From Eledone cirrhosa (taxonomy: Eukaryota): DNA of 64,000 bases. The stretch covers positions 75,268,001 to 75,332,000 of the forward strand of contig OZ024744.1 of NCBI GenBank assembly GCA_964016885.1. The letters run 5' to 3'. This document shows positions 13,636 through 58,000 of this stretch, piece after piece; positions within the stretch are counted from its first letter, which is position 1; the number at the start of each line of letters is the position of its first letter. Below the pieces are notes generated by a model. That model did not search any database. It was not told the origin of the DNA and saw only the letters and a program-made list of their open reading frames with translations. A program made the translations under genes and the position numbers.

Positions 13636-14876
13636 TATTTCTTTATTAGCCACAGGGGCACAAAAGAAGGGGACAAGTACAAAGGGGGAAGTTTACATAC
13701 AATAAAAACGTGTAAAATGTTATCACAAATGGAATTTAAAAAGTTAGTCGATTTTCCCCAATAGAGGGAGACAGTTTATATAGGTAACACATACCCCCCC
13801 CAAAAAAAAATGTACAACCCTCATCTCCAGGAGTAGGAAGAGTTTGTACTCCTTTCCTCTCCTCCTCCTTTTCCTCAACCTACAGGCTGATATAGAGAGA
13901 AGGCCCATTCACTCGGGCCATTCTCGCCACTTTCACCCACCTTTCATGAAACTTGCTGGGGTACAGCACCTCTCTCTCCATCCTGATTCTTCTTCCAAAG
14001 TGGTATTTGAAAAAAAGAATCAGTTGTTGGCCGGAGAGAAAGGTGTCTGACCTCAGCCCTTTCAACCTTGTCCACCATACAACCTCTTTCGCCATAGCTA
14101 TCACACAAAGGAAAACCGCCTCTCCTTCGTTTTTGAAGGAGGGTGGCGGTTTGATCATGACAATGGACTCGGTGGTCAACTGGATTGGTCCCACCCGCGA
14201 CAATAGTCGTTCTACATAGCCCCACAGGTCAGTGACGCCCGGGCAGTGTATGAATGCGTGCGCGACGGTTTCTTCGTCTCGCACGCACCTCGGACAGATC
14301 TTTTTTGCAGGGTCCCTGCCCGGGCGCCCATGTCTGTAGAGCTTGTCTCGAACTGGTAGAGCTCCTCGGTAGCACTGCCAGGCCAGGAGGGACTTTTGGA
14401 AGTTGTCCATCGGTCCCGGGCGGAAGGTCCTAGCGAACAGACTGGCCAGATCATCTTCCTCTACGCCTAGAGTTTCACCGAGCGCGTCGTCGCACTTGCT
14501 GCGGACCAACCCTCTATAGAATGACGAAGTGGAGTCTCCACTGATCGCCGGGTCCGCCTGCCAGAGGGCTGTGAGCCTGAGCACATTCGATGTGCCAGTC
14601 GCCCATTTTCCTCGGTCTTTGCTTGACCCAGGACTGCAGCTCGGTCAGCGAGACGAGTCGTGGGAAGGCTGGCCTCACGAACGGGGCCCACACCGGTTGT
14701 CCGGTGAGGAATACGTAGAGATGCCGCAGCCTGAGCGCGTGTTTAAGCATAGTCAACCACGGCATCCCCAGCCCTCCGTTAGAAGGGTGTTGGCAGCAGA
14801 TGGATCTTCTCACCAAAGGAGCCCGCCTCTTCCAAAGGAATCGGAAGAGCGCGCGCTCCATTTTGGCGAGCGTTTT
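13636..14876 (-). mobile_element. Tx1/L1-clade LINE, 5'-truncated copy A (post-RT region, CCHC, 3' UTR)
   Basis: ORFs 14514-14861 and 13880-14584 (GGLGMP, CPRC..DEET..H.F.HC). The 3' end reads aataaagaaatatatctat; (GATA)n lies on both sides. Confidence 0.93.
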
Positions 14877-14972: not shown

Positions 14973-15775
14973 TCTTTATTTGCCACTGGGGCGTACAAAA
15001 ATTGGACATTACAAGACGTGACGGCGGGGGTTTTACATAAAAATAACTTTAACATTAATAAATAACAAACTATATATAATAAAATAACAATTGAAATCCC
15101 CAGTTTCTGATGAGTACAGTTCTTAGAAAAACATAAGAGAGAAGTTTTACACCCCGTGGATAGAACAACCCTCAACACCAGGAACACGTTTTGTTGGTGT
15201 TCCTGTCTTCCCTCTGTTTATCTTCCTCAATCTACAGGTTTATATACAGAAATCCTATTCACTCGGGCCATTTTTGCCACATTCACCCACCTTTCAGCGA
15301 ATTTACTGGGATATAGGACCTCTCTCTCCACTCTCACCTTCCTTCTGAAGTGATACTTAAAGAAGGGGATAAGTTGTTGTCCCGAGAGAAAGGTGTTTGC
15401 CCTAAATAATTCCACAGGTCGGTCACCCCTGGGCACTGAACATTTGCGTGCAGAACGGTTTCGATGTCCTGCTCGCATCTTGGACAGGTCCTTTTGGCAG
15501 GATCTCTGCCAGGACGTCCGTGCCTGTAGATTTTGTCTCGAACTGGTAGAGCTCCTAGGTAGCACTGCCAGGCCAGAGACCTCTGGAAGTTATCCATAGA
15601 CCCTGGACGGAAAGTCCTCCCGAACAGACTGGTCAGTTCGTCCGCCTAGAGTTTCCCCGAGAACGTCGTCGCACTTCTCCTCCACTAATCCCTTATAGAA
15701 TGTCGAAGTGGAGTCTCCGTTGATTGCCGTTTCCGCTTGGTAGAGGGCTGTGAGCGCTTGTAGGCACTCGAGGGT
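14971..15775 (-). mobile_element. Tx1/L1-clade LINE, 5'-truncated copy B with internal deletion
   Basis: ECLQALTALYQA..., DNFQRSLAWQCY, CPRCEQDIETVLH, FFKYHFRRK. A deletion near 15405 joins DLWNY to RANTFLSG. The 5' junction abuts degenerate gataggtagatagacagata. Confidence 0.9.
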
Positions 15776-20729: not shown

Positions 20730-20943
20730 TCTGGGATGGACACACGCGTATAACTTGCTGAGTAAGTTCTGTTTAAATTTCTATAGAAATTCTTGTCTGT
20801 AAACTTTAATTTTTGTACCATTTTGTAGAGGGACTGCCAGGTCAAACTTTGATCTGGTCAGTCTCTCAAAATATTCTACGCCTTTAGGCGAAATAGTTAA
20901 ACAAAAAAAGTTTTTTCTTGTTGAAAAGTTAACATTTTTTAAA

Positions 20944-22199
20944 ATGGCTGAAGCTTCTTCACCAAAATTCGAAGGAGGAAAGGGGAAGGTAAACTTACAT
21001 TTCCCCCTGCCACTGTCACAGTAGCAAAGGTCAAAAAGAAAGGCCAGCCAGAGGAAGGATTTTCTCCACCTGTTGACCGACAACTTGACGTTGCCATGGC
21101 AACAACCCAAAGAACCAGCGGCACCAGCAACAGCAACAACAACAACAATGCGACGGACGAAAACAACACCAATAACAATAACAACAACAACACCAATAAC
21201 TGTGATAACAACAACACCACCAACTACAACAGCAACACAAACAAAATAAATTTCTCCTTCGCCGAGACGGCAAGGAAAACCCTCGACTATCTGCCAGTAG
21301 ATATAACCAAAGCGAAGGAGCCACTGGCAGATGCCAAAAAATATATAGTGTACGGGGAAAATGGTTCATTCACGATCCATCCCCCCCCCCCCGCCCCGGA
21401 ACTAAAAGGCCAGAGACTCCTAAACATTGTCATGTTTAGGACAATCTCGAATAAAAGCAAAAAACCAGCTCAACCATCACAGAGTGAGATAGAGCTGGTT
21501 TTAAAAGACGTCATGAAGGACATCACATCACCTTCATTCAGAAGGATAGACTCTACGGGAGTCTATCCATTCTCATGAAGGACAGGGACACAGCAGTGAA
21601 ACTGTCCATCAAACCAATCACATCCACCGCATACACCTTCTACCCTACGTACATGGGTAGAAGAACACAAAAAATAAAAATCCACACCATCCTGCCGATT
21701 ATGGACATATGGTGGGTTTTGACAGGTTTCCTGGACCTGGATGATGACTCGCTGGTGTCCATGGGAAAGGCATCGGGTGACGCGTTCAGTGGAACGAGCC
21801 TCGAACTTGTAGTTCAAATGAGGCCCGAAAGGATCGCCCAGATCCCTGAACGCGTCATACTGGATGATCAAACTTTCATCACAATCACAACTGAGGGTAG
21901 GCGGCCCTCGTGTTACCTCTGCGGAACCAGAGGTCACCTGAGGGCTGTCTGTCCCCAACTTAATAAGAAAACCCCAATCCTGCCTACACCACCAACAACT
22001 GCACAACCAACACAATCATTAACCGCGTCCTCCTAAAAAACTACCCCACCCCTCCTCAAACAACCACACAACTCCAAACTCCCCAACCACACAACACACT
22101 GATGCCCCTACACTTCCACAAACCACCACCCCACCAAACAACCCATCCCCCACCCTAATGGAAATTGTGCAGCCCGATACCCGGGACGCAGAGAGGTAA
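20944..22199 (+). pseudogene. Element 1 ORF1 (gag-like, CCHC zinc knuckle), frameshifted and internally deleted
   Basis: ORFs 21096-21578 and 21575-22036 align with element 2 ORF1. It lacks roughly 650 bp that element 2 has before aaccgcgtcctcctaaaa, and ends MEIVQPDTRDAER*. Confidence 0.85.
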
Positions 22200-22223
22200 G
22201 TGCCTTTTCTCTTCACCACCAAC

Positions 22224-25200
22224 ATGGCTATGCTAAGAGTAGGCTGTTTAAATGCGCGTGGCCTGGGCTCAACTTGGAAGCAAGCAATGCTTCTAAATGA
22301 CCTTAGGTCACAACGTATAGATGTGATGGTTATTTGCGAGGCCCGGATCAGCAACGTGCGGCAGCTGGCCCCCACCTTTTGATGACTTTGAGATGCACGC
22401 ATCTCTCTGTCAGCCCGGAGGTGGGGGTGGGGTTGTCGTTCTGCTGCAAAAACATCTGGGTCTCGCAACACAGATGGTACATTTGGACCCGGAGGGTCGA
22501 CTAGTGGTTCTGGACCTTGGCAGTGGTGAAGGCGGAGCGTTTAGGTTGGTAGCCGCCTACGGCCCTTTCGGGTCAATGCGGCCGGACTTCTTCCATCGTC
22601 TGGAGACTTTTCTAGGGACGTCCCGCTCCTTGCTATTAGTGGGGGACTGGAATGGTATCCTAGATGCACGCTGGGACTACGTAGGGGCCTGTCCCGATAG
22701 AGAGGGGTGTAATAGCCTCAAAGGGTTAATCGGTCGATTTGATCTGGCCGATAGATATCGACTAGATTTTCCGCCTGCGCCAACCTGGACTTGGGCAAAT
22801 CGTAGCGGATCATCTAGGTCGTACCTAGATAGGTTCTTAGTTAGAATTAAGGATAAGGACTTTTTAAGTTGTCCAAAAATGCGCATGGTTGGCTATTCAG
22901 ACCACAAGTTAGTGACCGGCAAGTAAGGTTTACAGGAACCGGATTAGCACTTTAGTTAAGGAGCGGTTGACGGGGGCCATCGACAACAGCAGGTGGTGGG
23001 GATCTCTCAAAAGAGAGATTAGAGTAGTCTCTATAGAATTTAGTAAGGAGTTAGCCTCCAATAGAAACAGGAAGGAAAGGGAGGTGGTAGATAGAGTAGA
23101 AGAGGCAATTAGAAGCGGCGACGTGGCCAGATTGCTAGCATCGAGAACGGCCCTGGGCCTGTTCTTCGACGCGAAACACGAAGGCTGTATCGTCCGAAGC
23201 AAAATACGTGCTCTGGGAAACGAGGGGACCAAAGATGTTAGCTGGGCCCGCGTGACAGAAGCCAAAAGAGGGAGCAGATCCACTATCCGGTCTTTGCGAG
23301 ACCGGGATGGACGGGTGATCCTTGAACCTAAGCAGATGTGCAGGCTTTTCAAAGGCACTTTGCCGGATTGTTCGGAAGGGGGGGGGGCGGTTGGGGATGT
23401 GGACTTTGGTCATACCTCGACGGCCTGCCGCGTCTCTCGGACAGGGAGACGAAGTCCTGCGAGGAGCCGATTTCAGCCGCTGAGATAGAGGACGTGCTGA
23501 GCCAATGCGGCAAACGCAAATCCCCGGGTCTCGATGGTCTTCCATACGAACTATATCTAGCTATGCCGGACTTGTTCCCCGAACTCCTCGAGGCGGTCTA
23601 CTGCAACTGGCAACAGAACGGGAGAATTCCCTGTGCTGTGACCAAGGGCGTAGTCACGCTAGTGAGGAAGGACGATATAAATAATAAAGGACGATATAAA
23701 TAATAAAGGGGGACGATATAAATAATTTCAGGCCCATAACTCTGCTAAATACAGAGTTACAGATTTTGGCCAAGGTGCTAGCAAAGAGGTTGGCGCTTGT
23801 CGTGGGCAACCTGGTGGGAGATGCGCAGACATGTGCTATCCGGTCCAGGTCCATCCACGACAACCTCTACCTCATGCGATTCATCATAGAGAGGGTTGGG
23901 AACGAACCCGGCTTTGGTGGGGCCCTGATCAACTTGGATCAATCTAAGGCATTCGATAGGGTCGACCTTGGTTACCTGGATGCGGTGCTAGCGGCGGCAG
24001 GCTTCGGGCCCGTTTTCAGGGGCTGGATCAATGCCATGCACAGCAGCCGCATCTGCTCTAGGGTCAAGGTGAACGGCTACCTCTCGGAGCCTTTCGAAAT
24101 CGCGCGGTCCATCCGAAATGGGTGCCCTCAATCCTCCCTTCTGTATGTAATGACTCTAGAGCCACTGCTGCGGAAGTTGGAGTTGTTGCAGGGCATCCCG
24201 TTGGAACCGGGATTGCAGAAAGCGGTGTCAGCCTACGCCGATGACGTAACAGTAATGGTGTCGACGGCCTCGGAAATCGGGGCGATTGGCACCTTACTGG
24301 AGGAGTACGAAAGGTTTACAGGGGCCAAGCTGAACCGGGACAAATCAATCGGTCTGCAACTAGGCACGTGGAGGGGCAGATCGATGCCCTCCGATGGCGT
24401 CGTCGGGCGCTGGACGGAGGGCCCGGTGAAGTTGCTCGGGGTCTGGTTCGTACCAGACCTCCAGGTGGAGAAGAACTGGAGTGAGGTAACGAACAGGGTG
24501 TTTGCACTGACCCAGAAGTGGGCCGAGTGCAAACTGTCCCTGAAAGGTCGGGCGGAGGTGGCGAACACTTATATAGCGTCCGTCATCTACTACCGTCTGA
24601 CCGTTGTGCCTTGCCCAAGTGAAACGCTCGCCAAAATGGAGCGCGCACTCTTCCAATTCCTTTGGAAGAAGCGGGCTCCTATGGTGAGGAGATCCATCTG
24701 CTGTCAACACCCTTCGAAAGGAGGGCTGGGGATGCCGTGGCTAATGATACGTAAACACGCATTAAGGCTACGGCACCTTCAGGTATTCCTCTCCGGTCAA
24801 CCGGTGTGGGCCCCGTTTGCGAGGCGAGCCTTTCCCAGACTCGTCTCACTCACGGAGCTGCAATCCTGGGTCAAGCAAAGATCGAGAAAACTGGGCGCCT
24901 GGCACACCGAGTGTGCCCAGGCGCTCACGGCTCTCTGGCAGGCGGACCCGGCTGTCAGTGGAGAATCCACCTCGTCATTCTATAGAGGGCTGGTGGTTAG
25001 CAGGTGCGACGACGCCCTCGGAGAAGCCCTAGGCATGGAGGAAGACGAACTGGCCAACTTGTTCGGTAGGACATTCAGCCCGGGACCCATGGATAGCTTC
25101 CAGAGGTCCCTGGCCTGGCAATGCTACAGAAGGGCTCTGCCCCTTCGAGAAAGGCTCTACAGACACGGGCGCCCGGGTAGGGACCCCTCGAAAAAGATCT

Positions 25201-25625
25201 GTCCCAGATGCGTGTGCGACGAGGAAACCGTTGCACACGCATTGGTACACTGCTCGGGCATTGCCGATCTGTGGGGCTATGTCGAACAACTGCTGCCAAT
25301 GGTGGGACCGATCCGGTTGACCACCGAGTCTATTGTAACGATCAAGCCGCCTCCCCTCTTCAAAAACGAAGGAGAGGCGGTGTTTCTGTGCGTAATAGCC
25401 ATGGCGAAAGAGGTTGTATGGTGGACGCGTCTGAAAGGACTGAGGTCAGACACCTTTCTCGCTGACCAACAACTGGTCCGTTTCTTCCGATATCATTTCG
25501 GAAGAAGGATCAGGATGGAGAGAGAGGTGCTGCACCCCAGCCGTTTTTATGAAAGATGAGTGAAAGTGGCGAAAGTGGCGAGAATGGCCCGTGTGAATGG
25601 GCCTTCACTCTACATCAGACTATAT
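22224..25625 (+). pseudogene. Element 1 ORF2 (APE endonuclease-RT-CCHC), disrupted; longest open piece 23766-25559
   Basis: LDQSKAFDRV, SIRNGCP, AYADD, KLLGVWF, GGLGMP, CPRCVCDEETVAHALVHC. Confidence 0.93.
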
Positions 25626-25888
25626 GTGAGGAAGATGAACGACCAAGGGAGCACCCCTTCTCTGTGCTCCTGAGGAAAAGGGTTGCACACTTTTTTTCGG
25701 GGGGGGGGGCGACCCCTCAAGGCGCCTCCTCTCTATTGAGGATTTTGGTATACATTTTATTCTGTTATATTTTATTTTATTTTTATATTTTGTTATTGCC
25801 TCCTCCTTATTGAGGACGCCTTGTTTTGTAAACTCCCCCCATTGTACTTGTCCCACTTTTGATGCCCTGGTGGCAAATAAAAGAAACA

Positions 25889-25916
25889 TATCTATCTATC
25901 TATCTATCTATCTATA

Positions 25917-25947
<31 letters not shown>

Positions 25948-25952
25948 TTATC
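25889..25952. repeat. (TATC)n spacer between elements 1 and 2
   Basis: Seen directly. Confidence 0.97.
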
Positions 25953-26191
25953 CATTCTAGCTGTCGTCTGTTCGATAGCGTAGACGTAATTCACTTCGCG
26001 CAGAAGTTTTATTCCAATTTATTGCGGAAATTTTGTAAGTTTAATTTTAATTTTGATACTATTGTGTAGTTGACCCCCCGTTTGAACTGTCAGGCGGTGG
26101 GTCAGCTCATTTTCGTCCCTCCCATGGTTGAAAAACCTGTTTTTAAAAAATTTTGTTGCATAAAATTTCAATCGTTTGGGAGAAATGTTAA

Positions 26192-28144
26192 ATGCAGCTA
26201 ACGAAAATAGTGCTGGGGGGGGGGACAGCGGTAAGAGTTGTAAGCTCGCACGCTTTAGTCCCCCCTTCCTTCCCAACTAACGTGATAGAGAAGGAAAGGA
26301 AAAATAAAATAAAAACAGACGAATGTGCGGAGAAAAATGTCGAGGAAAACACAAATCTGGAGATTGATTCCAACAACAACAAAAATTTGAAAGAATTGCA
26401 TGACAATATTAATACCACAGACAAAGAAACAACAAACACAAAAATAACATTTGAAAACAACAACATCATAACAGAAAGCAAAACAGACGACAAAGTCAAC
26501 ACCAATAACATCTCATTTGCACAAACAACAAAAAAATCTTTAACGTACATACCTGAAAATATTTCAGATGTGGCACAAAGAATAAAAAACGCCAAACAAT
26601 TCATAACTCAAGGGGAAAATGGAGCCTTGTCGGTAAAAATGCCCCAAGAACCCACCAAAAATATTGAATGTCGGACGGTCGTTTTCCGCACCATCAACAA
26701 CATCTCAAAAAAGCCGCAACAACCAACACAAGTAGAAATTAAAGCGGTACTTAGAGAAGTATTTAATGAAGCCACTTTCATAAGAAGAGATAGGCTGTAT
26801 GGAAGCCTGGCCATTATTATGAAGAACGAATCGGCGGCGAAAAAATATGCTTTGTCGCCGATTCGTTCGACAAATTTTACCTTTTATCCATCTTATATGG
26901 GTAAAAGAACTCAGCGCATATGGCTGCATGTGATGATGCCAGATATGGACTACTGCTGGCTCATAGCTGGCTTCATCGATCCAGCGAATGACAACGTGAT
27001 TTCCATTGGGAAAACCACAGGCAATGCGTTCAGTGGAACAGGTATAGAACTTGTAGTGCAAATGAAGCCTGAACGCATTGCCCAAATACCCGACAGAATC
27101 CTATTAGAGGGCCACGGGTATATAAACATTAGCGTGGAGGGGAGAAGGCCGTCCTGTCATATCTGTGCAGGCAGAGGGCACCTGAAGGGGGATTGTCCCC
27201 AACTCAACAAGAAGAAAACCCTGCTACCAACACCAGCTCCACCACCACCACAACAGATAAACAAACAACAAAACTCAGTCCTACCCAACCCGTCCCTCAG
27301 TAAAACTACACCACCACCACAGCACAAACAGACACAACGTATTACCCAAAAACAAAACAGAATCCCACCCAACCCCTCACTCAATAAAACAACACGACCA
27401 CCACAGCCACAACACACAACACAGTCTAACATAGTGACATCCATCTCCCCCACAAAGAAAACTAACACGGAAACACTACCAGCAAACATACCTCTTCCCT
27501 CCAACACTGAAGATAACCCAACGAATTCGGAGGAAGAAACGGAGTCCTTTAGACAGATTAAAAGGAAAAAAAGAAAACATGTGCAAAACACACAAGGCCA
27601 AACAGCCCCTACCCAAATGTCAACACAATCCAACAAAACACAAAATACCCCTCCACCAACAAACAAAACCAAACCTGCCCCTCCCCTCTTCGAAACACTC
27701 ACACCATCCGAAAAAAAGACATTACACTATACTTACATCAACAGAAACAATAATAAATTAAATGAACTCATAAACAATAACCCTTCGGTACAAACCGAAG
27801 GTGTAAACTTTGTTTTTTCAGAAAACAACCCACAATTAAAATTAATAAAGATCCCAATGAACCTCTACCAAAAACTAAAAAAGGATTTTAAGGAGGACGT
27901 AGGACCACCCTCTGTCAAACCCATAAACCGCGTCCTCCTAAAAAGCTTTCCCCTTCCCCTTCCCCTCCCCAACACAACTCCAAACACCCCAACGCCACCA
28001 CACACTGACGACCCCACACCACCACAAGACATCCCTTCACCCAACACCTCCGACCCATGGAAGTTGTGCGACCCGAACCCCGGGAAGCAGAAAGGTAGGT
28101 CTCTACACTCTCCTTTGGCTTTGCCGCCCACATGGATGTGTTAA
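26192..28144 (+). CDS. Element 2 ORF1, gag-like nucleic-acid-binding protein (CCHC knuckle)
   Basis: Open 650 codons with CHICAGRGHLKGDC, a P/Q/T-rich linker and a conserved C-terminal block. By comparison with other copies the true end is probably MEVVRPEPREAER* (stop 28096-28098) in another frame. Confidence 0.85.
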   Translation: MQLTKIVLGGGTAVRVVSSHALVPPSFPTNVIEKERKNKIKTDECAEKNVEENTNLEIDSNNNKNLKELHDNINTTDKETTNTKITFENNNIITESKTDDKVNTNNISFAQTTKKSLTYIPENISDVAQRIKNAKQFITQGENGALSVKMPQEPTKNIECRTVVFRTINNISKKPQQPTQVEIKAVLREVFNEATFIRRDRLYGSLAIIMKNESAAKKYALSPIRSTNFTFYPSYMGKRTQRIWLHVMMPDMDYCWLIAGFIDPANDNVISIGKTTGNAFSGTGIELVVQMKPERIAQIPDRILLEGHGYINISVEGRRPSCHICAGRGHLKGDCPQLNKKKTLLPTPAPPPPQQINKQQNSVLPNPSLSKTTPPPQHKQTQRITQKQNRIPPNPSLNKTTRPPQPQHTTQSNIVTSISPTKKTNTETLPANIPLPSNTEDNPTNSEEETESFRQIKRKKRKHVQNTQGQTAPTQMSTQSNKTQNTPPPTNKTKPAPPLFETLTPSEKKTLHYTYINRNNNKLNELINNNPSVQTEGVNFVFSENNPQLKLIKIPMNLYQKLKKDFKEDVGPPSVKPINRVLLKSFPLPLPLPNTTPNTPTPPHTDDPTPPQDIPSPNTSDPWKLCDPNPGKQKGRSLHSPLALPPTWMC

Positions 28145-31100
28145 GAGTAGGATGTTTGAATGCACGTGGCCTGGGCTCAACTTGGAAGCAAGCAAAGCTT
28201 CTAAATGACCTCTGGTCACGTGGTATAAATGTAATGGTTATCTGTGAGACTCGGATCAGCGTCGTGCGGCAGCTGTCCCCTACCTTCGATGACTTTGAGG
28301 TGCACGCATCTCTCTGTCAACCTGGAGGTGGGGGTGGGGTTGTCGTACTGCTGGAAAAACACCTGGGTCTCGCCGTACAGGTTGTTCACTCGGACCCGGA
28401 AGGTCGTTTGTTGGTGCTAGACGGTGGCAGTAGTGGAGGTGCGGCCTTGAGACTTGTCGCCGTCTACTCCCCTTTCGGAGCTGAACGACTCGACTTCTTC
28501 CAGCGTCTAGAGACTTTTCTGGGAACGTCGCGTTCCCTGCTTCTACCGGGGGACTGGAATGACATCCTAGATGCACGTTGGGACTATTCAGGAGCATGTC
28601 CTAATGGAGGGGGTGTAACAACCTCAAGGGATTACTCGACCGTTTTAACTTGGTCGATAGATATCGACTAGATTTTCCAACTGTACCAATCTGGACTTGG
28701 ACGAACCACAGTGGTCAATCTAGATCGTATTTAGATAGATTCTTAGTTAGAAGTAAGGATAGGGACATATTAAGCTGTCCAGAAATGCTCACGGTTGGCT
28801 ATACAGATCACAAATTAGTGACCTGCGTAGTCAACCTCGAGAGAACACATAGACAGGGTCCCGGTTACTGGAAACTTAATTTGTCTTTACCGGCAAAAGA
28901 GGCTTACAGAGACCGAATTAGCAGATTAGTTAAGGAGAGGTTGCCGGGTGCAATCGTCAACAACCGATGGTGGGCATCTCTCAAAAGAGAGATTAGAACA
29001 GAATCAATAACTTATAGCAAGATGTTAGCTGCCGATAGGAATAGGAACGATAAAGAATTAACAGGTAAATTAGAAGAGGCAATCAAGAGCGAAGATGTGG
29101 CCAGAGTGCTGGCACCGAGGACAGCCTTGAGCCAGTTTTTCGATGCAAAGCACGAAGGCTGCGTCATTCGAAGTAAAATACGTGCTCTAGGTAATGAGGG
29201 GGCCAAAGCCGTTGGCTGGGCCCGCGTGACAGAAGCTAAGAGTGGAAATCGATCCACCATCCGGTCTTTGCAAGACGAGGATGGACGGGTTATCCGGGAG
29301 CCTAAGCAAATGTGCGAGGCCTTTCAAAGGCACTTTGCCCGATTGTTCGGGGGAGGCGAGGGTCCGGGCGGGGACGTGGATTTCGGTCCATACTTCGACG
29401 GCCTGCCGCGTCTCTCAAGCGAAGAGGCAGAGTCATGCGAGAGATCAATCTCGGCTGATGAGATCGGGGATGCGCTGAGCCAATGCAGCAGACGCAAATC
29501 TCCAGGTCTCGATGGTATACCTTACGAACTTTATTTAGCATTGCCGGTCTTCTTCTCTGGACTCCTCGAAGCAGTCTACTGCAATTGGCAGCAGAACGGG
29601 AGAAGTCCTTGTTCTGTAGCCAAAGGCGTAGTCTCGCTGGTGAGGAAGGACGAGAACAAGGGGATAGTATAAATAATTTTCGGCCCATAACCCTGCTAAA
29701 CACAGAGTTAAAGATTTTGGCCAAGGTGTTAGCAAAGAGGTTGACGCTTGTCGTGGGTAGCATTGTGGGAGATGCGCAGACATGTGCTATCCCATCCAGG
29801 TCCATTCACGACAACCTCCACCTCATGCGATACATCATAGAGAGGGTTGGCAACAAACCCGGCTTCGGTGAGGCCCTGATCAACTTGGATCAGTCTAAGG
29901 CGTTCGATAGGGTCGACCATGGTTACCTGGATGCGGTGCTAGCGGCGGCTGGGTTCGGTCCTGTTTTCAGAGGCTGGATCACTGCCTTCCATAGCAACCA
30001 CATCTGCTCTAGGATCAAGGTGAACGGCTACCTTTCGAAGCCGTTCGAAATCACACGATCCATTCGACAGGGGTGCCCTCTCTCCTCCCTTCTGTACGTA
30101 TTGACTCTCGAGCCTTTACTGAGGAAGTTGGAGTTGTTGCAGGGTATCCCCCTGGAACCAGGATTGAGCAAAGCGGTGTCGGCCTACGCCGATGACGTAA
30201 CAGTAATGGTATCGACCGACTCGGAGATCGAGACGATGGGTACCTTACTGGAGGAATACGAAAGGTTGTCAGGAGCGAAACTGAACCGGGAAAAATCCAT
30301 CGGGCTGCAACTCGGAACGTGGAGAGGCAGGCCGATGCCTCCCGACACTGGACGGAGGGCCTGGTGAAGTTGCTTGGGGGCTGGTTTGGACCGGACCTCC
30401 AGGTGGAAAAGAACTGGGCGAGGTTACGAGCAAGGTGTTTGCACTGACCCAGAAATGGCCCAAGTATAAGCTGTCCGTGAAAGGTAGCGCGGAAGTGGCG
30501 AACATTTACATAGCATCCATCACCTACTACCGCCTGACTGTCGTGCCTTGCCCTAAGGAAACACTCACCACCATGAAACGCGTGCTCTTTCAATTTCTTT
30601 GGAAGAAGCGGACTCCTATGGTGAGAAAATCCATCTGCTGCCAACAACCTTCGAAAGGAGGGCTGGGGATGCCGTGGTTGATGATGCGTAGGCAGGCATT
30701 ATGGCTACGGCACCTACAGGTATTCCTCACTGGTCAACCGGCGTGGGCTCCGTTCGTGAGACGAGCCTTTCCGAGACTCGTCTCGCTCACCGAGCTGCAG
30801 TCCTGGGTCAAGCAAAGATCCGGAAAACTGGGCGACTGGCACACTGAGTGTGCCCAGGCGCTCAGAGCTCTCTGGCAAGCGGACCCGGCCATCGGTGGAG
30901 AATCCACCTCGTCATTCTATAGAGGGCTGGTGGCTAGCAGGGGCGATGACACCCTTGGAGAGTCGCTGGACATGGAAGAGGACGAACTGGCCAGCCTGTT
31001 CGGTAGGACATTCGGCCCGGGACCAATGGACAACTTCCAGAAGTCACTGGCCTGGCAGTGCTACCGGGGGGCTCTACCCGTTCGAGAAAAGCTCTACAGA

Positions 31101-31552
31101 CACGGGCGCCCGGGCAGGGATCCCTCGAAAAAGATTTGCCCTAGATGCGTTCGTCACGAAGAAACCGTTGCGCACGCATTGGTGCACTGTCCGGGCGTGG
31201 CTGATCTGTGGGGCTACGCCGAACGACTGCTATCGTGGGTGGCGCCGATTCGATTGACCGCCGAGTCCGTGGTAACAATCAAGCCGCCTCCCCTCTTCAC
31301 AATGGAAGCAAAGGCGGTTTTCTGTGCGTAATAGCCATGTTGAAAGAGGTTGTTTGGTGGACACGATTGAAAGGTCTGAGGTCAGGCAACTTCCTCTCTG
31401 GCCATAGTCTGGTCTACTTCTTCCGATATCACTTCGGAAGAAGGATAAGAATGGAGAGAGAGGTGCTTGGCCACAGGCAGTTTTATGAAAGGTGGGTGAT
31501 AGTGGCGAGAATGGCTCGTGTAAATGGGCCTTCTCTGTATACCATCCTGTAG
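28132..31552 (+). pseudogene. Element 2 ORF2 (APE-RT-CCHC) with several frameshifts
   Basis: MDVLRVGCLNARG, GDWN, YTDH, GPGYWKLN, FRPITLLN, QGCPLS, YADD, CPRC...HC, ending VNGPSLYTIL*. Confidence 0.93.
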
Positions 31553-31806
31553 GTAAAGAAGTGAAGGAGAGGGGGGCACCTTCTCCATGTGCTCCCTGGG
31601 CAAAGGATTGCACACTTTTTCGGGGGTGTGTGCAACCCCCATCACGTCCCCTCGCTTTTGAGGTTGTTTCTGATTATTTTCATTTTATACCCTTTTTACT
31701 CGGTTTTATGTAAACTCCCCCTTTGTATTTGTCCCTTCTTTTTAAGCCTTTATGGTAAATAAAGAAATATATCTATCTATTTATCTATCTATCTATCTCT
31801 CTCTCT

Positions 31807-34800
31807 GCCTGACGCGTGGAACATCACCGGTAAGATTTTTTGTAAATTGATATGCGAAAAACAGAACAAATTGTTTGAAAAAACATATTATTTTGCAGAT
31901 TAACCCCCAAGCTAAATTGTCAGCAGGGTGGTAATCCAATTTTTCGCCCCTTTAGGGGCGAACATTTAATTTTAAAATTGTTTTAAAATATCAAATTTTG
32001 CCAACTATAAAACATGAATATCACGAAAGGAACGCTGGAGAACGTCGACAGAGAAAAGAGAGAGAAAGAGGCAGATTTTAACGTTATATCTGCTTCTGCT
32101 ACTATGGCCGTCGCCATAGATACGACTGTCAACAAAGAGAAAAAAATATTGCCACTTAAAGATTGTACAATTTCTACCGTCGAAGCAGAGAAAAATGAAA
32201 ACACAGGAATTAAACCCATTAACATACATACACATGATACACAGATACATCTACACATAAAGTTTCACCTCGTCAAGGAACTGAGATTTCCAACACCGAG
32301 GCTAACAACGATAACAACAACAACAGCAACACCACACAAAAAAAAATGTCTTTCCTTGAAACAGTGAACAAAAAACAAGATTTTATAAATCTTGACATCT
32401 CCAATGCAAGAGATATGCTCCAGCAAGGGAGAGAATTTGTAACTTTCGAAGAGAAGGGGGGGGGGGTTTAGAATTAACTCACCCCTTGAAATAAAAGAAG
32501 ACACAGTTCGAAGGACAGTGACCTTTAGGACTGTGTCCAATACCACGAGAAAGCCGATATTTTTTAGTCAATGAGATATAGAAGATACCTTGAAGGAAAT
32601 TCTAGCAAATATCGAATTTCTCTAACGAGAAAAACAGTACGGAAGTGTTTCCGTACAGTTTAAAAGCGAGGCACTTGCTCCAAAACATTCTGTGAAACCA
32701 ATAGTGTCATAAGTATTCACCTTTTTCCCTACATACATGGGAAAAATGACACAAAAAATAAAAATAAAAAATATACCCCCAAACATTAACATCTGGCTTT
32801 GGCTGGCTTTGTAGAGCCAGAAACTGATATGATTCTTTCGATACGAAAGTCTATTCGACAAAGGGGAGCGGGTGCTGATTTGGAGATTCTGTTGCAAACG
32901 AGGCCGGAGAGAATCTCCAAAATACCCGAAAGAGTCGTCATCGACAACAACAAAATAAACATTTCGGTAGAAGGGCGAAAAATTCCTTGCTTTCACTGTG
33001 GTAACACAGCACACCTAAAAGCCTCCTGTCCTTCACAAACACACCACAACATCATTAAAAAAACACTATTACCAACACCAAAACAATCACCACCACCACA
33101 TGTACAACAACAGACGAAACGAGCAATCACACCAAAAAACAAACAGCCACTCAACCAACAGCAACAGAAAAAACAGAGACAACACCCTGATGACCACAGC
33201 CCCACCCCATCCCACTCCATCAAACACTACCACAAACACGCACACCAAAACACCACCACCCCACAACATGCCCCTACCGCACATTCCTGAAGATGATTAT
33301 TCATCGACGGATGAAGCTGCTTCTCCTTCTTTAAATGAAGAAGAGGGAGAGCCGCGGAAATCTAAAAGACAAAAAAGAGACACCACAAAGCCCCCAAATT
33401 CCAATCACCAACACCAACACACAACCACAGACACAAACAACAACACACAACACCACAGTCAAACGTCCCCCTACCAGCAAAAGCAACACCAACACCACCC
33501 CAAACACAAGCACCCACCATAAAAAGAAAACTCCCGGACGAACAACAAACAAAAACAACACAACAAAAACACAAACAACAATACGCATACATCAAAACAA
33601 ACAACAAGAGTTTGATGGAGGTCATCTCCCAAAACCCCAAGGTGGAGACGGAGGGCAAAGCTTTCGCAAGGCAGAATCGTCTCCACACCTTAAACTTAGG
33701 GTTTCAATGGAAACCTATAATGACCTGAAAAATAAATGTTCACAGGACGTGGGCAACCTGGATGCGGTGCTAGCGGAAACCCATCAACCGCATCCTGTTA
33801 AAATGTATCCCCGCCCCACCCAACACCCCATTCAACACCCAAATGGAGATTGAACAACCGGATCTCCAGGAAACGAAAAGGTAAGTGCACCTTTCGTCCT
33901 TTTTCTCCAACTCTTCTTCACCAACATGGCTAGTTTACGAGTTGGAACTGTGAATGTGCGTGGCCTAGAGATGCCCTGGAAAGAGGGCCAACTTTTAAAC
34001 GACCTTAGGTCACACGGTATGGATGTGATAGCCATCACCGAGTCCAGGATCCACAACAGGCAGCAACTAACCCCTATCTTCGAAGACCTTGAGATCTACG
34101 CATCTCTCTGTCAGCCAGAAGGTGGAGGGGGAGTGGCTGTCTTGTTTCGGAAGAACCTGGATGTCGAAGTACAGCAAGTACACTTGGAACCGGAGGGTAG
34201 AGTGGTAGTCCTAGACATGAACAGTATTGGAGGTGGAGCCTTCAGACTGGTGGCCGTTTATGCCCCGACTGGGCAATCGCCATCACGGCCAGACTTCTTT
34301 AAGCGTCTAGAGTATTTCCTGAGAACGTCTCGCTCCTTACTTTTAGTGGGGGACTGGAATGGTATCCTAGATATACGATGGGACTATGTGGGAACATGTC
34401 CCAGTAGAGGGGTTTGCAACAGCGTCAAAACTAATCGGCCAATTCCAACAGGCCGATAGGTATCGACTGGATTTCCCGACTGCACCACAGTGGACGTGGG
34501 CAAACCGCAGCGGGATATCTAGATCGTATTTAGATAGGTTCTTCATTACAGAAAGGGACAAGGAGATGTTAAGCTGTCCACGAATGCACATTGTTGCCTA
34601 TTCAGATCACAAATTAGTCGTCTGCTTAGTCAACCGTGATATGACACATAGACAAGGACACGGATACTGGAAGCTGAACGTGTCGTTTCCGGGACGTAAA
34701 GCTTACATTGAACGGATAAGTAGACTAGTCAAGCAACAGTTAACGAGAGCCATCGTCAACAATAAATGGTGGTACTCTCTCAAGAAAGCAATTAGAATAT

Positions 34801-37560
34801 AATCGATAGGGTTTAGCAGAGAGTTAGCCTTAGAGAAAAACATAATAGAAAGAGAACTAGTAGCCAAGGTAGAGGAGGCACTTAGAAGTGGCAACGCGGC
34901 TAGAGTGTTAGCGTCGAGAACGGCACTGGACCAGTTCTTCGATCCGAAACACGAAGGCTGCGTGGTCAGAAGCAAAACACTTGCTCTAAGAAACGAAGGA
35001 GCGAAAGCTGTCAGCTGGGCCCGAGTGGCGGATGCAAAAAGTGGCAACAAGACCACGATTCGGTCTTTGAAATACCAAAACAGACGCGTGCTACTTGACC
35101 CCCAAGCAAATGTGCACGGCCTTTCAGCAGCAATTTGCGCGACTGTTTGAGCAGAACGACGGTGAGCGGAACGTGGCAATGGACTTTAGTTCATACCTCG
35201 ACGGCCTGCCACGTCTCTCGAACAGTTACGCCGAGTTATGTGAAAGACTGATCACGGACACTGAGATACGGGACGTTCTGGTCCGCTGCGGGAAACGCAA
35301 GTCACCCGGACTAGATGGTCTACCCTATGAGTTTTACATAGGCATGCCGGACTTGTTCTCTGGCGTCCTCGAAGCCGTCTACTGCAATTGGCAGCAGAAC
35401 GGGAGAATTCCCAGTTCTGCATGCAAGGGCGTAGTAACGCTGATCAGGAAAGACGAGAACAAGAGGGGCGAAATTAACAACTTCAGGCCAATAACTCTGC
35501 TCAACACAGAGTTAAAGATTTTGGCCAAGGTACTAGCGACGAGGTTGGCGCTTGGCGTCGAGAACCTGGTAGGGAAAGCGCAAACGTGTGTAATCCCGTC
35601 CAGGTCCATGCACGACAACCTCCACCTCATGCGATACATCATAGAGAGGGTGGTAGTAAACCCGGCTTCGGTGGGGCTCTGATCTGGATCAGTCTAAGGA
35701 ATTCGATAGGGTCGACCATCGATACTTAGAAGCGGTCCTCAAGGCGGCAGGTTTCGGTCCTGTTTTCAGAAGCTGGATCGAGGCGATGCACACCAGCACC
35801 TGCTCGAGCGTCAAGGTGAACGGCTACCTATCGGAGCCGTTCGCAATCACGCGTTCGATTCGACAGGGATGTCCTCTCTCCTCCATTCTGTATGTATTGA
35901 CTCTAGATCCACTACTGAGCAAATTGGAGCTGTTGCAGGGCATCCTTCTAGAACCGAGCCTGCGCAAAGTGACGTCGGCTTATGCCGACGACGTGACGGT
36001 TATGTTGTCGAGCAACTCGGAAATCGGGGTGATCGTCAACTTACTGAAAGAATACGAAACGCTGACGGGAGCAAAACTAAACCCGGACAAGTCTGTCGGT
36101 TTGTAAGTCGGTACGTGGAGAGGAAAACCGATGACATCCGACAGCGTCGTTGGACGCTGGACGGACGGACCGGTGAAATTGCTCGGGGTCTGTTTCGGTC
36201 CACACCTCCAGGTGGAGAAAAACTGGAACGAGGTCACGGCCAGAAGTGGGCAGAGTGCAAACTGTCCTTGAAAGGTCGAGCGGAGGTGACGAACACTTTC
36301 ATAGCGTCCGTCATCTACTACCCCTTGACTGTCGTGCCTTGTCCCCGTGAACACCTCGCCAAGATGGAACGCATGCTCTTCCAGTTTCTGTGGAAGAAGC
36401 AGGCTCTGCTGGTGAAGAGATCCGACTGCTGTCAACACCCTCCCAACGGAGGGCTGGGAATGCCGTGGCTGATGATGCGCAAACATGCCCTGAGGCTGCG
36501 GCATCTCCAGGTATTCCTCACCGACCCCCAACCGGTGTGGGCACCGTTTATGAGACAGGCTTTCCCACAGCTGTCTCGCTGACGGAGCTGCAGTCCTGCG
36601 TCAAGAAAAGAGCGAAAACGATGGGCGCCTGGCACATTGAATGCGCTCAGGCGCTCACAGTCCTCTGGCAAGCGGGCGCAGCAATCAGTGGAGACTCCAC
36701 TTCGACATTCTATAGAGGGATTGTACGTTACAAGGGCGACGACGGGCTCGGAGAGACTCTGGGCGTCGAAGACGATGAGCTCACCAGACTGTTTGGTAGG
36801 ACTTTGACTTTCCGCCAGGGACCTATGGACAACTTCCAGAGGTCCCTGGCCTGGCAGTGCTACCGAGGAGCTCTACCGGTTCGTGACAAGAACTACAGGC
36901 ACGGACGCCCGGGCAGGGATCCTTCCAAGAGGACGTGTCCAAGATGCACGCAGGACATTGAAACAGTCCTGCACGCAATTGTACACTGCCCGGGCGTAAC
37001 TGACCTGTGGAACTATGCAGAACAACTGCTGTCGCGTCCATAGTAAGGATCAAACCGCCAGCCTCTTTCAAAAACGAAAGAGAGGCGGTTTTTCCTCTGT
37101 ACGGTGGCCATGGTGAAAGAAGTTATATGGTGGACGAGATTGAGAGGTCTGAGGACAGATGCCTTTCTCTCCGGACAACAATTGATTCCCTTCTTTAAGT
37201 ATCACTTTAGAAGGAGAATCAGAGTGGAGAGAGAGGCACTGCACCCCAGTAAATTTACTGAAAGGTCGGTGAATGTGGCAAACATGGCCCGAGTGCTTGG
37301 GCCTTCTCTGTTTATAAGCCTGTAGGTTAAAGAAGAGAGCAAATGGAAGAAAGGGGCACTTGCACAACACGCTCCTGAAGTTGAGGGTTGTTCTGTCGAC
37401 GGGGTATTAAACAACCCATTTGTGGTGCTTCCCGCCTATTGGGGAGTTCGATTGTTATAATTGTTTGTTTTTATAGTTTTTACACGACTGTATGTAATAT
37501 CCACGGCATGTCTTTTTATTGTCTCCTTTTCTTGTGCAACCTTGTGGCAAATAAACAAAT
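31807..37560 (+). mobile_element. Tx1/L1-clade LINE, element 3 (full length, more decayed, divergent subfamily)
   Basis: ORF1 fragments with CFHCGNTAHLKASC; ORF2 fragments 33926-37325 (VGTVNVRG, GDWN, QGCPLS, YADD, CPRC); preceded by tatctatc/ctct and ending aataaacaaatatatctatctatct. Confidence 0.94.
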
Positions 37561-37572
37561 ATATCTATCTAT

Positions 37573-37750
37573 CTAGGGAGGATAACATTCCCGAGATCCA
37601 TGGACGAGATCTCTCCAGCGGTCTCTGTCCTTCATCATCGCCCTCATGTCCTGCGTCTCCCAGAGACCAGTGTCTATTCTTAGGGCATCAACATATGTCA
37701 ACCTCGGTCTCCTCCCTCTTCTAGTGTGTCCGTGTAGGGCGAATCCCACA
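37573..37750 (-). mobile_element. RTE-clade LINE extreme 3' fragment whose tail is (TAGA)n
   Basis: HGHTRRGRRPRLTYVDALRIDTG...MMKDRDRWR is a typical RTE C-terminus; the TAG stop runs directly into atagataga on the minus strand. Confidence 0.75.
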
Positions 37751-38687: not shown

Positions 38688-40222
38688 ACGAAGGAGTTCT
38701 GGTAAGGAACCCGATGGACCATAATGCACCAGAGTACTCAATACTTAGGGTATTAGAGTGGGTAATAGGAAAATGTATGACTCCGACAACAGAGCTCAAG
38801 TCGTTTCGACGGCTATTTCTGGACTAAATTAGAATTGTTAGCCTGGTAAATAAAAAGCCGAACTTTTCAGGTGGTACTTCCTTATATGGGAAGATTGTAG
38901 ATCTCAAGAGGATTGGTCAAGATTTCTTGTAAACATAATTAAGTCTATCATTTCCCCCTGATCAACAGATGCCGAGAACGTAACGTGATCTACCAGTGCA
39001 ACGTGAGGACGGACACCTCCAACAAAGCTTATATAGGACTAACCGCTTGTGAATTTAAGACCCGGCTCTACCAGCACCGACATACGTTCCGAAACCCGGT
39101 CCCGCGACACGCCACTACACTTTCGGGCCACATCTGGGACCTCCAAGATAATAACATAACATACAATCTTACTTGGAGTTTACTGTCCCGAGCTAACTCC
39201 TACACGGGAGGACGCCGTCCGTGTAACTTATGCTCGGAGGAAACATTACAAATGATGCTTACTAAGGACCAACTCCTAAACAAAAAAGACGAACTGGTAA
39301 ATGCATGCAAACACCGACTGCGTAGGACTTACCTCGCCCTCAAACCCCTACGACCCGGGTGGGTACACAATGGCTGAAACATTCCACTTACCGAATAAGA
39401 TAGGGGAAACCCCAGCTTAGTCTCCTCCTATCACTTCCTTCCACTCCCGATCTTCTTCCTCTTTATTTGTTCTCCCTTTGCCTACCCCGAGGCAGCCATC
39501 GGGCCTCTGTAGCCCCAGTACCCCAACCCCAGTAAATTAAAGGTAGCATTGGCTGAAAACGCAATACTAACTAATCATAGCAGCTGTGTTAGGCTCCAGA
39601 GATGTTGTATTACTTTTTGCTACCCAATTCTATAATTTCAAAAATTCTTATTTAGTATCTTCTATTCTCAATTTATTAACCTATTCTATAGCATTGGCCG
39701 AAAAAGCAACGGTAACTAAATATAGCAGCTGTTTTAGACTCCACCCGGTTTTTGTTTTTTATCACTTCTTATTATCCAATTTTATATTTTTATTATCTTT
39801 CTCTTATTGTTTATTGTCTCCAAATCTCAATTGATTTACCTACTCTATAACGTCCCTCCTCGATTTTCTCCAGAACCCTTTTTCGCCTACTTTCCTCTAG
39901 CCTACTTTTATACACAATCCTTAGAATTTGCTGTATATATTTCACTTTCAATGCTTGACCGGCTCCACGCACTCCCTCATTGCTCTACAGGCAAGTTCAG
40001 CCCCCCCCCCCCCCCCCACACACACACACTGCCATGATAGACTTAATTGTGTTTACAAGAAATGTTGCCCAATCCTCTTGACAACTACAAACTTCCCATA
40101 TAAGGAAGTACCCCTTGAAAAGTTCGGCTATTTATTTACCAGGCTAAACATTCTAATTTAGTCCAGAAATAGCCGTCGAAACGGCTAGAGCTCTGTTGCC
40201 GGGGGTCATACATTTTCCTATA
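38685..40222 (+). mobile_element. Penelope-like element 3' part (GIY-YIG endonuclease) with an inverted terminal copy
   Basis: GIY-YIG ORF at 38985-39377; about 38765-38951 is the reverse complement of about 40035-40222; (TA)n lies at both outer ends. Confidence 0.8.
38985..39377 (+). CDS. GIY-YIG endonuclease domain of a Penelope-like element (5'-truncated)
   Basis: VIYQC...YIGLT..FKTRL..H..TF, TTLSGHIW.L, CNLC.EE, LLNKKDEL...CKH. Confidence 0.85.
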   Translation: MIYQCNVRTDTSNKAYIGLTACEFKTRLYQHRHTFRNPVPRHATTLSGHIWDLQDNNITYNLTWSLLSRANSYTGGRRPCNLCSEETLQMMLTKDQLLNKKDELVNACKHRLRRTYLALKPLRPGWVHNG

Positions 40223-45186: not shown

Positions 45187-45329
<143 letters not shown>

Positions 45330-45332
45330 CTA

Positions 45333-45379
<47 letters not shown>

Positions 45380-55092: not shown

Positions 55093-58000
55093 GAGTCTGA
55101 ACGAACGTCTTTTTGCTCGCTCCCGTAAGTTTATTTATTTACCTGTCAAAACTTATTTATTGAATTTGTTGTTGTTGTGTAAGGCATACAAGCCCTTGGA
55201 CTTTGCCCTGTGAAGGGGAAAGAATAATATTTTGGCCTTTTGGCCCAAATATTTGAACTCTTTTACAATTTAACAAAATCATTGAAAAAAAAAACATGGC
55301 TGAGCCACACTCCCCAGCGATATGTCTTTTGTCGTGCTACAACGACGTAAAAGTTGAGAGGAGCGCTACGGCGAAATTAACAGAAATTGATACAACAAAC
55401 ACCAACACAAACAATGTTAACAAAGACAGCAATGATAATAACACTGAGCACTCTAATTTTCAAAAAAATAACAGTAACAGCGACAACGAAAATACAGATA
55501 ACACCAACAGCAACAATAGCAACTGCACCGAGAACAACGGCGGCACCAAACACAACAATGATAACAGCGACAGTGATAACAACAGCACCAATAAGAACAA
55601 CGACAACAACAACAACAACACCAACGACAAAAAGAAGAACACTTTCGCTGCGGCAGCAGCAAAAAAGAAGCCATGCTTCAACATGGACCTCTCAAACAAA
55701 GATGAAAAGTTGGCCCAGGCCTGGAAGCTCATCGATCGAACAAGAGCAAACCTGGGACAACTTAACTGTCCCGGTAGAAGCTATTGAGGCAGTGGAGAGC
55801 AGAACGGTGCATTATAGATGCATCTCAGCACAAACCAAAAGGGCAGCTTTATTTCCACCAGCAGATGTCGAAGTAGCGCTGAGGTGCATCAAAGATGACA
55901 CCGAATACTTAGAGGGGCAGACAGTACGGCACCATTTCGATGCTATTCAAGTTGAAGCCCTCGCTATGAAACACGCTATGACTCCTTGCAAAACCAGCAA
56001 GGTCTTAATGTACCCCTCCCACATGGGAAAAAGAACGGGCCGTCTCCGCATTCCCAGAATCCCACCAGGACTTGACATGTGGTGGCTTCTGGGATGTGTG
56101 ATAGTGGAGGGGACGGATAGATGTGACAAGAACGGCCAGAGAGGATTGGTCCGGGGTTGACCTGGAGATCCTTCTCCAGATCAGGCCCGAGAATGTGAAG
56201 ACAATCCCGGACCACATCCGCCATCAGAATGGGACGGTCATTCACATTATGACCGAAGGTAAATGCCGCATTGTTTTGTTTGTGGGGAAAAAACCCATTT
56301 GCGACCTTCTGCCCTTAACTGCTGAAAGAGGCAAGAGGTCGAAAGGCTCCACTGTTGCCGACGCCGGGGCGAGGACCACAACCAACACCAGCACCGGCAA
56401 AACCACCAACAACAACACCAGTAGACAGACCACCACCAACATTGACCACCCAGGGGGAAAACGAGGAAAGCTATCAAATTCCCCCTCCCCCCCAAAATAG
56501 ACACTCCAATAAAACCATAAACATACATACAGATACACTTACAGACACAGACCCCTCATATACCAGTAGTGAAAATGAGGGAAATCCAAAATCTCCCAAA
56601 ATATAAAAAAGGAAACACAAAAAGTCAAAAAATGGCAACAAAGCACAAAAGCACCCACAATAAAAAACGCAGACACCACCCACGCAAACATCTCTCCAAT
56701 AACACCAACATCAACACCACCATCACCATCACCAGAATCCCCCAAACGCAAACAACCGAAACAGACGCAAGAACAAATATACACACAAACATCTGAAACC
56801 ACAGACACCGCACTCACAACAAACACAGATACAACCGAAACAACACCACCAAAACCATCACCACCACAGCCACGCAAACAAATAAAATCACATCAACAAA
56901 ACATACAAAACTTCGTGCTCGTCAGGAGGGCCAACAAGGAACTGATGGCCCTCGTAGCACGAAGTGAAAATATACAAAAAGAGGGGGACATTTTAGAATA
57001 AAGCACATTTCGCGGGCCGGAAGATTTGGTTCTGGTGCGAATGTCGCTCGACATATTCAAAGAAATACGAGACAGCTTTCCTCGGGACGTGGGAACCCCG
57101 AACGTAAAACCCACTTCAAGACTTTTAAAGGGGTTCCCAAAAGAAACCCCACTAACTATGGAGGTCGAACCACCCGACCTTTACAAGAGCCCGGAAGGTA
57201 AGTAAACCTTTCCTCTCTCTCTTTTAACCTGCCAACATGGCCATATGAAGATGAGGAAGTTTAAATGTTCGAGGCCTGAGATCGTCCTGGAAGCCGGGTC
57301 ACCTGCTCAACGACCTCAGGTCTATAGAAATGGATGTCATTGCCGTCAGCGAGACCAGAATTTCCGACACAAGCGCACTAGCCCCCATTTTCGACGACTC
57401 TCAGATCTTTGCATCTGTTAGCCGGTCGGGAATGGGAGGCGGGGTGGCAGTGCTGATTAGGAAAGGCCTGGATCTCGTGGATAAGGTCGATCCCCCGGCA
57501 CCGGAACGGGAAGTTGGTGGTCCTGGACGTGAACAATAACGAAGGTGGGGCATTACAACTAACGTGCTAGCGGCGAGAATGGCATTAGACCATTTATTCA
57601 ATGCGAAACACGAAGGTTGCATTGTCAGAGTTAGGGCGCTGGCACTGAGAAACGAGGGAACCAAAGCTGTTCGATAGGCCCGCATGGCGGAGGCGCAGCG
57701 TGGTAATAAAACCACGATTCGGACTTTGACGGACCGAGATGGACACGAGCTGAGCGATTCCAAGAGGATGTGTGAGGCCTTTCGCCAACATTTTGTTCGG
57801 TTGTTCGGGGGAAGTGGCGGGTCAGAGACGGTGTCGGACTTCAGTCCCTACTTCGATGGCTTGCCGCAACTCTCGACGGTCGACGCTGGGCGTTGCGAAA
57901 GGCCGATTACTTCAGCCGAGATTCAGCATGCCCTTGTCGGCTGTATGAAGCGCAAGTCATCCGATTTGGGTGGTCTGCCCCACGAGCTTTACGTAAATAA

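Follow-up and report, generated by a model that had tools for sequence, protein, structure and literature searches.

A conserved donor-like site at the end of ORF1 in an abundant LINE family of Eledone cirrhosa and a possible intron across ORF2

A stretch of 64,000 nucleotides (nt) from Eledone cirrhosa (GenBank assembly GCA_964016885.1, contig OZ024744.1, positions 75,268,001 to 75,332,000 of the forward strand; called the window here) holds tandem and scattered copies of one family of long interspersed nuclear elements (LINEs), approximately 70–81% alike. The elements carry two open reading frames (ORFs), and a sequence resembling a 5′ splice site lies on the stop codon of ORF1. This donor-like site is conserved, ranks first or second among the GT sites of each element compared, and is kept in all three reading phases. 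An earlier note on this DNA had proposed that all of ORF2 lies in an intron running from this site to an AG at the ORF2 stop. The letters and positions quoted there are right (the four donors and four AGs in Table 1), and its donor is indeed conserved. The acceptor is conserved at background level, no spliced copy was found among roughly 5,700 genomic ORF1 ends, and the intron is plausible but unproven.

The donor-like site at the ORF1 end

Elements 1, 2, 3 and 4 of the window belong to subfamilies B, D, C and A1, respectively. The subfamily labels (A1–A4, B1–2, C, D/D′, E1–2, F1–2, G/G2, H, J and K) are our own, and J, K, H and G2 are each based on one or two copies. For the comparison of donors we used ten representatives with ORF2 intact or nearly so, whose proteins are 66–98% alike. 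GTRRGT (R, purine) is present at the ORF1 end in all ten, and −1G, +1G, +2T, +5G and +6T are identical throughout. Positions +3 and +4 differ only among purines, while −3, −2, +7 and +8 vary freely. By comparison, the four-fold degenerate sites of ORF2 in the same representatives are invariant in 49 of 244 cases (20/81 for G and 5/36 for T). With +1, +5 and +6 treated as free, the chance of such invariance is approximately 0.009, which is a rough and post hoc estimate. In 13 of 13 elements, at most one of the 237–342 GT sites matches the general U1 consensus better than this one. Of 172 distinct junctions fetched from the genome, 151 have GTRRGT; the other 21 carry point changes, small indels and one deletion, and 10 of these 21 came from searches designed to find deviants.

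The phase of the donor relative to ORF1 differs between subfamilies. It is 2 in B, C, D, F and H, 1 in A1, A2, E2 and G, and 0 in A3 (long ORF1 frames or several copies each), and the ORF1 stop under it may be TAA, TAG or TGA. These shifts occur at the level of the subfamily. All 29 G junctions tallied have the donor, the phase-1 donor of E2 is found in two copies with intact 643-codon ORF1s (L325 and L326), and phase 0 of A3 is seen in three copies (L330, L331 and L379). The different register of the stop in element 4, which the earlier note had pointed out, is likewise a trait of its subfamily. Because the invariance exceeds the four-fold background, the site ranks at the top and it survives in all three phases and over all three stop codons, the donor looks selected and conserved beyond what an ORF1 stop needs, a point that the earlier note had proposed to check.

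We also looked for the motif in distant metagenomic LINEs. The check covered the 39 of 80 loci whose match began near the ORF2 start, 29 of them with a candidate ORF1. GTRRGT lies on the stop in 2 of the 29 (L195 convincing, L222 doubtful), where approximately 0.6 is expected by chance on a rough estimate. The motif is near chance in these distant LINEs, and the donor is therefore a trait of the present family. In L195 (metagenome contig RCNA010001159.1), GTGAGT lies over the candidate ORF1 stop in phase 1, as in subfamily E2.

The ORF1–ORF2 spacer behind the donor is rich in pyrimidines. In 12 representatives of 11 subfamilies (A3 was excluded as mis-parsed), the tract is 16–34 nt long and 75–85% C/T, and the distance from the donor to the ORF2 ATG is 27–45 nt. 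A short intron of approximately 28–56 nt that fuses ORF1 to ORF2 was rejected as a general rule, with the first AG behind the donor out of frame in A1. This AG keeps the frame in B, D and E1 and in some C copies, the failure in C resting on L090 alone; the very short length of these candidate introns also counts against them. In E1/E2 (L325, L152 and L153) and A2 (L137), a pyrimidine tract and CAG lie 28–36 nt behind the donor and before the ORF2 ATG, and in E2 and A2 this CAG ranks highest of all acceptor-like sites. A donor further upstream could use it to give an ORF2-only RNA.

A predicted intron across ORF2

Our preferred reading is a tentative one. A strong U1-type donor lies exactly at the end of ORF1 and would bind U1, and a minority of transcripts would be spliced from it to the AG at the ORF2 end (in subfamily F, to a predicted acceptor further into the 3′ untranslated region (UTR)). 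The product would be an ORF1-only mRNA, and the unspliced RNA would be the sole template for the ORF2 protein (ORF2p) and for new insertions. The element would gain extra ORF1 protein (ORF1p) from an RNA without the 3.7-kb tail behind the ORF1 stop. In element 2, the predicted intron is 3458 nt long. Its two ends have a short repeat in common.

The stop AG ranks 2–11 among 98–124 YAG sites (Y, pyrimidine) by pyrimidine count in 11 of 11 elements that end ORF2 in TAG. The earlier note had described a pyrimidine-rich stretch ahead of this AG and a purine run behind it. The first is present, but it consists of Gly-Pro-Ser/Thr-Leu codons. The base behind the AG of the second truncated copy is A rather than G, and subfamilies G and G2 carry T or A there. 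In element 1, the letters ctatat had been read correctly; they are a private change, its cluster reading CTATAG in 10 and CTGTAG in 2 of 13 ends.

In the TAG subfamilies, a splice to the ORF2 end is predicted to leave the ORF1 end almost normal, and the earlier note's observation to this effect extends to them. ORF1 would stop at most two codons past the stop AG in 10 of 15 TAG subfamilies (permuted phases: mean 6.3, p 0.017). Each of the five misses has a second AG, 7 nt further upstream, that shares the frame of the ORF2 stop. When an AG up to 9 nt upstream is allowed, 15 of 15 agree (permutation mean 10.3, p 0.001), and with one copy per clade (nine representatives) p is 0.008–0.12. This is a post hoc test in which the rule on upstream AGs was brought in once the five misses were known, and the phases cluster by clade; we take the match as a hint only.

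Besides this property of the phase test, several findings weigh against the intron. The acceptor at the ORF2 stop is weaker than the donor. In eight TAG representatives, 16 of 41 two-fold and 30 of 94 four-fold G sites are invariant, so TAG with the following G is expected approximately 0.12 of the time. The acceptor is thus conserved at background level. Subfamily F, which is young and intact, ends ORF2 with TAA in 20 of 20 ORF2-intact copies. These came from a search of the same genome with a distant ORF2, which gave 40 places, 39 of them without an internal stop; the 20 fetched are all F, and all keep the donor. Stop variation among young intact copies, which the earlier note had named as telling against the intron, is therefore found at ORF2, with the donor still kept. 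No shared branch-point motif was visible by eye.

The F-type 3′ UTRs have a site of their own. A T-rich tract with CAG lies approximately 70 nt ahead of AATAAA in 9 of 9 aligned, and the other subfamilies are without it. An F-like copy that ends ORF2 in TAG also has the tract and CAG, so the site would predate the loss of TAG. TAG was likely lost in F, since this TAG-ending F-like end exists and F falls outside A plus B–E/H in the tree (a quick version, with outgroups without names).

Precisely ORF2-less genomic copies, which the earlier note had suggested as a trace of splicing, were searched for in A, B, C, D, D′, E2 and F (either F site), and none was found. The search covered 4138 ORF1 ends for A, B, C, D and D′, up to 593 matches of the E2 search and 1057 F2-type ends (F1 uncounted), approximately 5,700 in total. 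The 593-match search is dominated by E2 (E2-type in 95 of the first 100 matches) and is no test of other acceptors in B, C and D. Exact patterns overlook mutated copies, perhaps a quarter to a half by our estimate; a gapped pattern is workable on this genome, as one gave 244 matches for an unspliced stretch of the C 5′ UTR. The 14 initial matches in the F search were small indels. Likewise, the ORF1 end was found upstream in 0 of 30 3′ UTR loci, and 0 of 86 rearrangement calls begin at the donor. The absence of spliced copies lowers the odds of splicing only modestly, because an RNA lacking ORF2 would depend on proteins supplied in trans, and those of L1 act preferentially on the RNA that encodes them. 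Such a cis preference would account for the absence.

Contigs from four sequencing runs, none on record as RNA, were compared with L151, where a young D′ copy neighbours a C copy. No joint at the predicted sites is among the 15 of 931 listed; the listed joints are mostly cross-mapping between neighbours, and none is from run X4. X4 (88 million letters, from a second sample) may be RNA, although it is not on record as such. A 505-nt contig from this run spans the D′ acceptor unbroken.

Other readings of the site and known systems

That U1 acts at the site, with or without splicing, seems to us rather probable. If it acts without it, the site would bind the U1 small nuclear ribonucleoprotein and rarely be spliced. 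Its role would then be to keep the full-length RNA from being polyadenylated too early, or to adjust the stability or export of that RNA, and the AG would be a plain stop. This account, which we consider somewhat unlikely, explains a conserved donor with an unconserved acceptor and also the lack of spliced copies. The pyrimidine tract behind the donor resembles TIA-1 or PTB sites. In 7 of 13 elements, AATAAA occurs 250–490 nt ahead of the donor, but there it encodes Asn-Lys within an A-rich ORF and is accounted for by coding. Poly(A) hexamers downstream are not conserved, just 5 of 13 elements having AATAAA or ATTAAA within 1.2 kb, and the phase match and the F 3′ UTR acceptor are left unexplained. 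A precedent exists in Arabidopsis, where the U1 site of the EVD element additionally keeps the unspliced RNA from terminating too early (PMC5580714).

Plain inheritance is an unlikely explanation in our view. An ancestral Arg codon, stop and GT would have been passed on with no selection beyond the ORF1 stop, and any stop codon with G before it and GT behind it looks like a donor. TAA, TAG and TGA are all compatible with GTRRGT, at most about half of the four-fold sites vary between the subfamilies, and the motif was picked after being seen, with the estimate of its chance based on three positions. The DNA and contigs examined yielded no product of the site, and the low count among the distant LINEs, near the rough chance estimate, also fits. 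Against inheritance stand the value of approximately 0.009 for the three free positions, the free variation at −3, −2, +7 and +8 outside the U1 footprint, the restriction of +3 and +4 to purines, and the persistence of the site across three or more frame shifts. It is improbable that the motif, the pyrimidine tract and a strong ATG context make up a signal for ORF2 translation (termination and re-initiation) or a DNA- or RNA-binding site that mimics a donor: the donor-to-ATG distance of 27–45 nt and the 75–85% pyrimidine of the spacer in the 12 representatives would suit this, and the donor in the human L1 5′ UTR is kept because it lies within a RUNX3 site (PMC5860796), but the pattern of invariant and variable positions fits the general U1 consensus.

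If ORF2 is spliced as in our preferred reading, the family may follow a copia-like strategy with two RNAs. ORF2 would lie in a regulated intron with a fixed donor and a moving acceptor, the spliced RNA would give ORF1p, and the unspliced RNA would give ORF2p and insertions. We regard this as possible but less than probable. The moving acceptor (stop AG, AG 7 nt upstream or new F 3′ UTR site) would preserve a near-normal ORF1p end. Drosophila copia makes a gag-only RNA by splicing, and the long intron predicted here would likewise take out the part that encodes the enzyme, with the joint close to the 3′ end. However, copia is a long terminal repeat (LTR) element, and translation of an ORF1/ORF2 LINE favours ORF1 without splicing. 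The stoichiometry argument of the earlier note carries less weight than it does for copia, since ORF1 is the first to be translated from a two-ORF LINE RNA anyway. HAL1 (half-L1) elements are ORF1-only and exist as genomic families. With ORF1 and the 3′ end but without ORF2, they resemble the predicted spliced product, whereas no such derivative was found here. Human L1 also yields splicing products, among them SpORF2 and the SpIREs.

The SpIREs arise by splicing from the 5′ UTR and have left genomic copies, 131 of 6,609 full-length L1s or approximately 2% (PMC5860796). Their RNAs still encode ORF2p, and L1 proteins prefer their own RNA (PMC5860796). L1 resembles the present family in having donor and acceptor sequences within a LINE RNA, and in both something other than splicing may be what conserves a donor. 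It differs in that the L1 donor is in the 5′ UTR and spliced copies were left, whereas the present family has its donor on the ORF1 stop and no spliced copy was found. The plant Ty1/copia element EVD makes a Gag-only RNA (shGAG) through a conserved U1 donor and a short intron coupled to early termination, as determined with RNA and mutants, and one U1 site does both jobs, splicing and the blocking of premature termination (PMC5580714). It shares with our prediction a U1 donor that is conserved and lies close to where the structural gene ends, a structural-only RNA, an unspliced RNA for the enzyme and a donor conserved better than the acceptor. EVD is an LTR element with a single polyprotein frame and a short intron; the present element is a two-ORF LINE, and its 3.5-kb intron, which would span all of ORF2, is predicted from DNA. 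The introns of TART lie in antisense transcripts (PMC1636488).

In the literature examined, splicing of LINE RNA is a dead end or a brake (PMC5860796). The conserved donor suggests instead that an element may benefit from U1 or the spliceosome. If ORF2 is a facultative intron, a LINE would have arrived independently at copia's means of setting the balance between structural protein and enzyme, and the splicing factors of the host would act as a switch, at the level of the tissue, on thousands of copies. Should the site bind U1 and do nothing more, it would still be a control element in LINE RNA, unreported as far as the literature was searched. We found no ORF2-spanning intron in a LINE in this literature, most subscription papers lying outside the search.

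The LINE family and its copies in the window

Element 2 is a full-length but decayed copy (Table 1). Its ORF1 is frameshifted just before its end, and the stop in the family frame is TAG at 28096–28098. ORF2 is interrupted here by stops and frameshifts, and its domains were identified in an intact relative.

Table 1. Positions of the LINE features in the window (64,000 nt; position 1 is its first nucleotide).
Feature	Position	Strand	Remark
Element 1 (subfamily B), donor-like site	22193..22201 (GT at 22196)	+	phase 2
Element 1, ORF2 end	25620..25628	+	TAG privately changed to TAT
Element 2 (subfamily D), full-length decayed copy	25957..31805	+	(TATC)n tail; 93–96% identity to 20 fetched copies
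Element 2, ORF1	26192..28098	+	approximately 635 codons; CCHC knuckle
Element 2, donor-like site	28092..28100 (GT at 28095)	+	GTAGGT; overlaps ORF1 stop; rank 2/296 GT sites
Element 2, pyrimidine-rich spacer	28101..28131	+	ahead of ORF2 ATG at 28132
Element 2, ORF2	28132..31552	+	interrupted
Element 2, acceptor-like site	31526..31553	+	AG 31551–31552 = ORF2 TAG; rank 2 (one tie)/99 YAG sites by pyrimidine count
Element 2, AATAAA signal	31758..31763	+	
Element 3 (subfamily C), donor-like site	33878..33886 (GT at 33881)	+	phase 2
Element 3, ORF2 end	37314..37326	+	two AGs: stop AG 37324–37325 and one 7 nt upstream, 37317–37318
Element 4 (subfamily A1), donor-like site	57195..57205 (GT at 57198)	+	phase 1; ORF1 ending Gly-Lys-stop spans site
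5′-truncated E2-type copy, ORF2 end	13875..13905	−	stop AG at 13880
Second truncated copy, ORF2 end	15227..15257	−	stop AG at 15232; next base A, not G

The source is a 3.0-gigabase animal assembly in which the family is abundant: a single ORF1-end motif alone accounts for the 4138 matches given above. In the intact copy L139, ORF2 matches PF03372, PF00078 and PF13966 (endonuclease, reverse transcriptase and zf-RVT, the last slightly below the cut-off), and its closest solved structure is human L1 ORF2p (E 3e-49). ORF1 is separate and upstream, with approximately 600–715 codons in intact copies (about 630 in an intact relative with a CCHC knuckle). AATAAA followed by a TATC or ATT tail is present in most of 118 paired elements. 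The family thus has an apurinic/apyrimidinic (AP) endonuclease, a reverse transcriptase and a C-terminal zinc motif, a separate ORF1, and a poly(A) signal with a simple-repeat tail, as L1-group LINEs do, and we describe it as L1/Tx1-type. A CCHC zinc knuckle in ORF1 is a feature of the Tx1 clade. Here CX2CX4HX4C is visible, the Pfam match to zf-CCHC being weak (E 0.32), and Tx1 membership is plausible. Relatives at the 38–44% level were also found. For ORF1, a large protein set gave no homologues, and a representative search gave 120 distant matches without context.

The tails differ by lineage, with TATC in 52 of 65 B–E/H elements and ATT in 41 of 50 A/F/G elements; target and tail are not told apart in these counts. 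This split suggests two microsatellite targets within one family. Elements 1–3 form a head-to-tail array with (TATC)n between them (20735–37575). Kibi and Koshi are Tx1-clade LINEs that target microsatellites and have two ORFs, an AP endonuclease and a reverse transcriptase (PMC4494074). They resemble the present family in these features and in having copies in simple repeats. The repeats here are (TATC)n and (ATT)n, and no splice signal was found described for Kibi or Koshi in the available part of that paper.

Both ORFs are intact in copies of subfamilies F, D′, A2 and E2 (L251–L270, L129, L139, L149, L137, L325 and L326), and the D′ copies are 98.6–99.9% alike. Given these intact and near-identical copies, the family looks recently active.

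Near the 5′ ends of elements 1, 3 and 4 there is an AT-rich GTAAG...AG stretch of 58–70 nt with a hairpin-like inverted repeat (20762–20828, 31830–31898 and 55125–55183). The stretch is present in B, C, A1, E1 and some F copies and degraded in D, E2, G and young F1. We rejected it as a used intron, since C has 244 unspliced and 0 spliced genomic copies.

In the distant relative P0037, a protein, the C-terminus of ORF2 continues into a stretch that by eye resembles the read-through of an E2/C-type 3′ UTR (behind the stop at 13880 on the minus strand of the window), a hint that the first part of the 3′ UTR used to be coding sequence or that an RNA structure is shared. Elsewhere in the window, 44881–46561 and 38943–39377 contain pieces of other mobile-element ORFs, one of which weakly matches zf-RVT.

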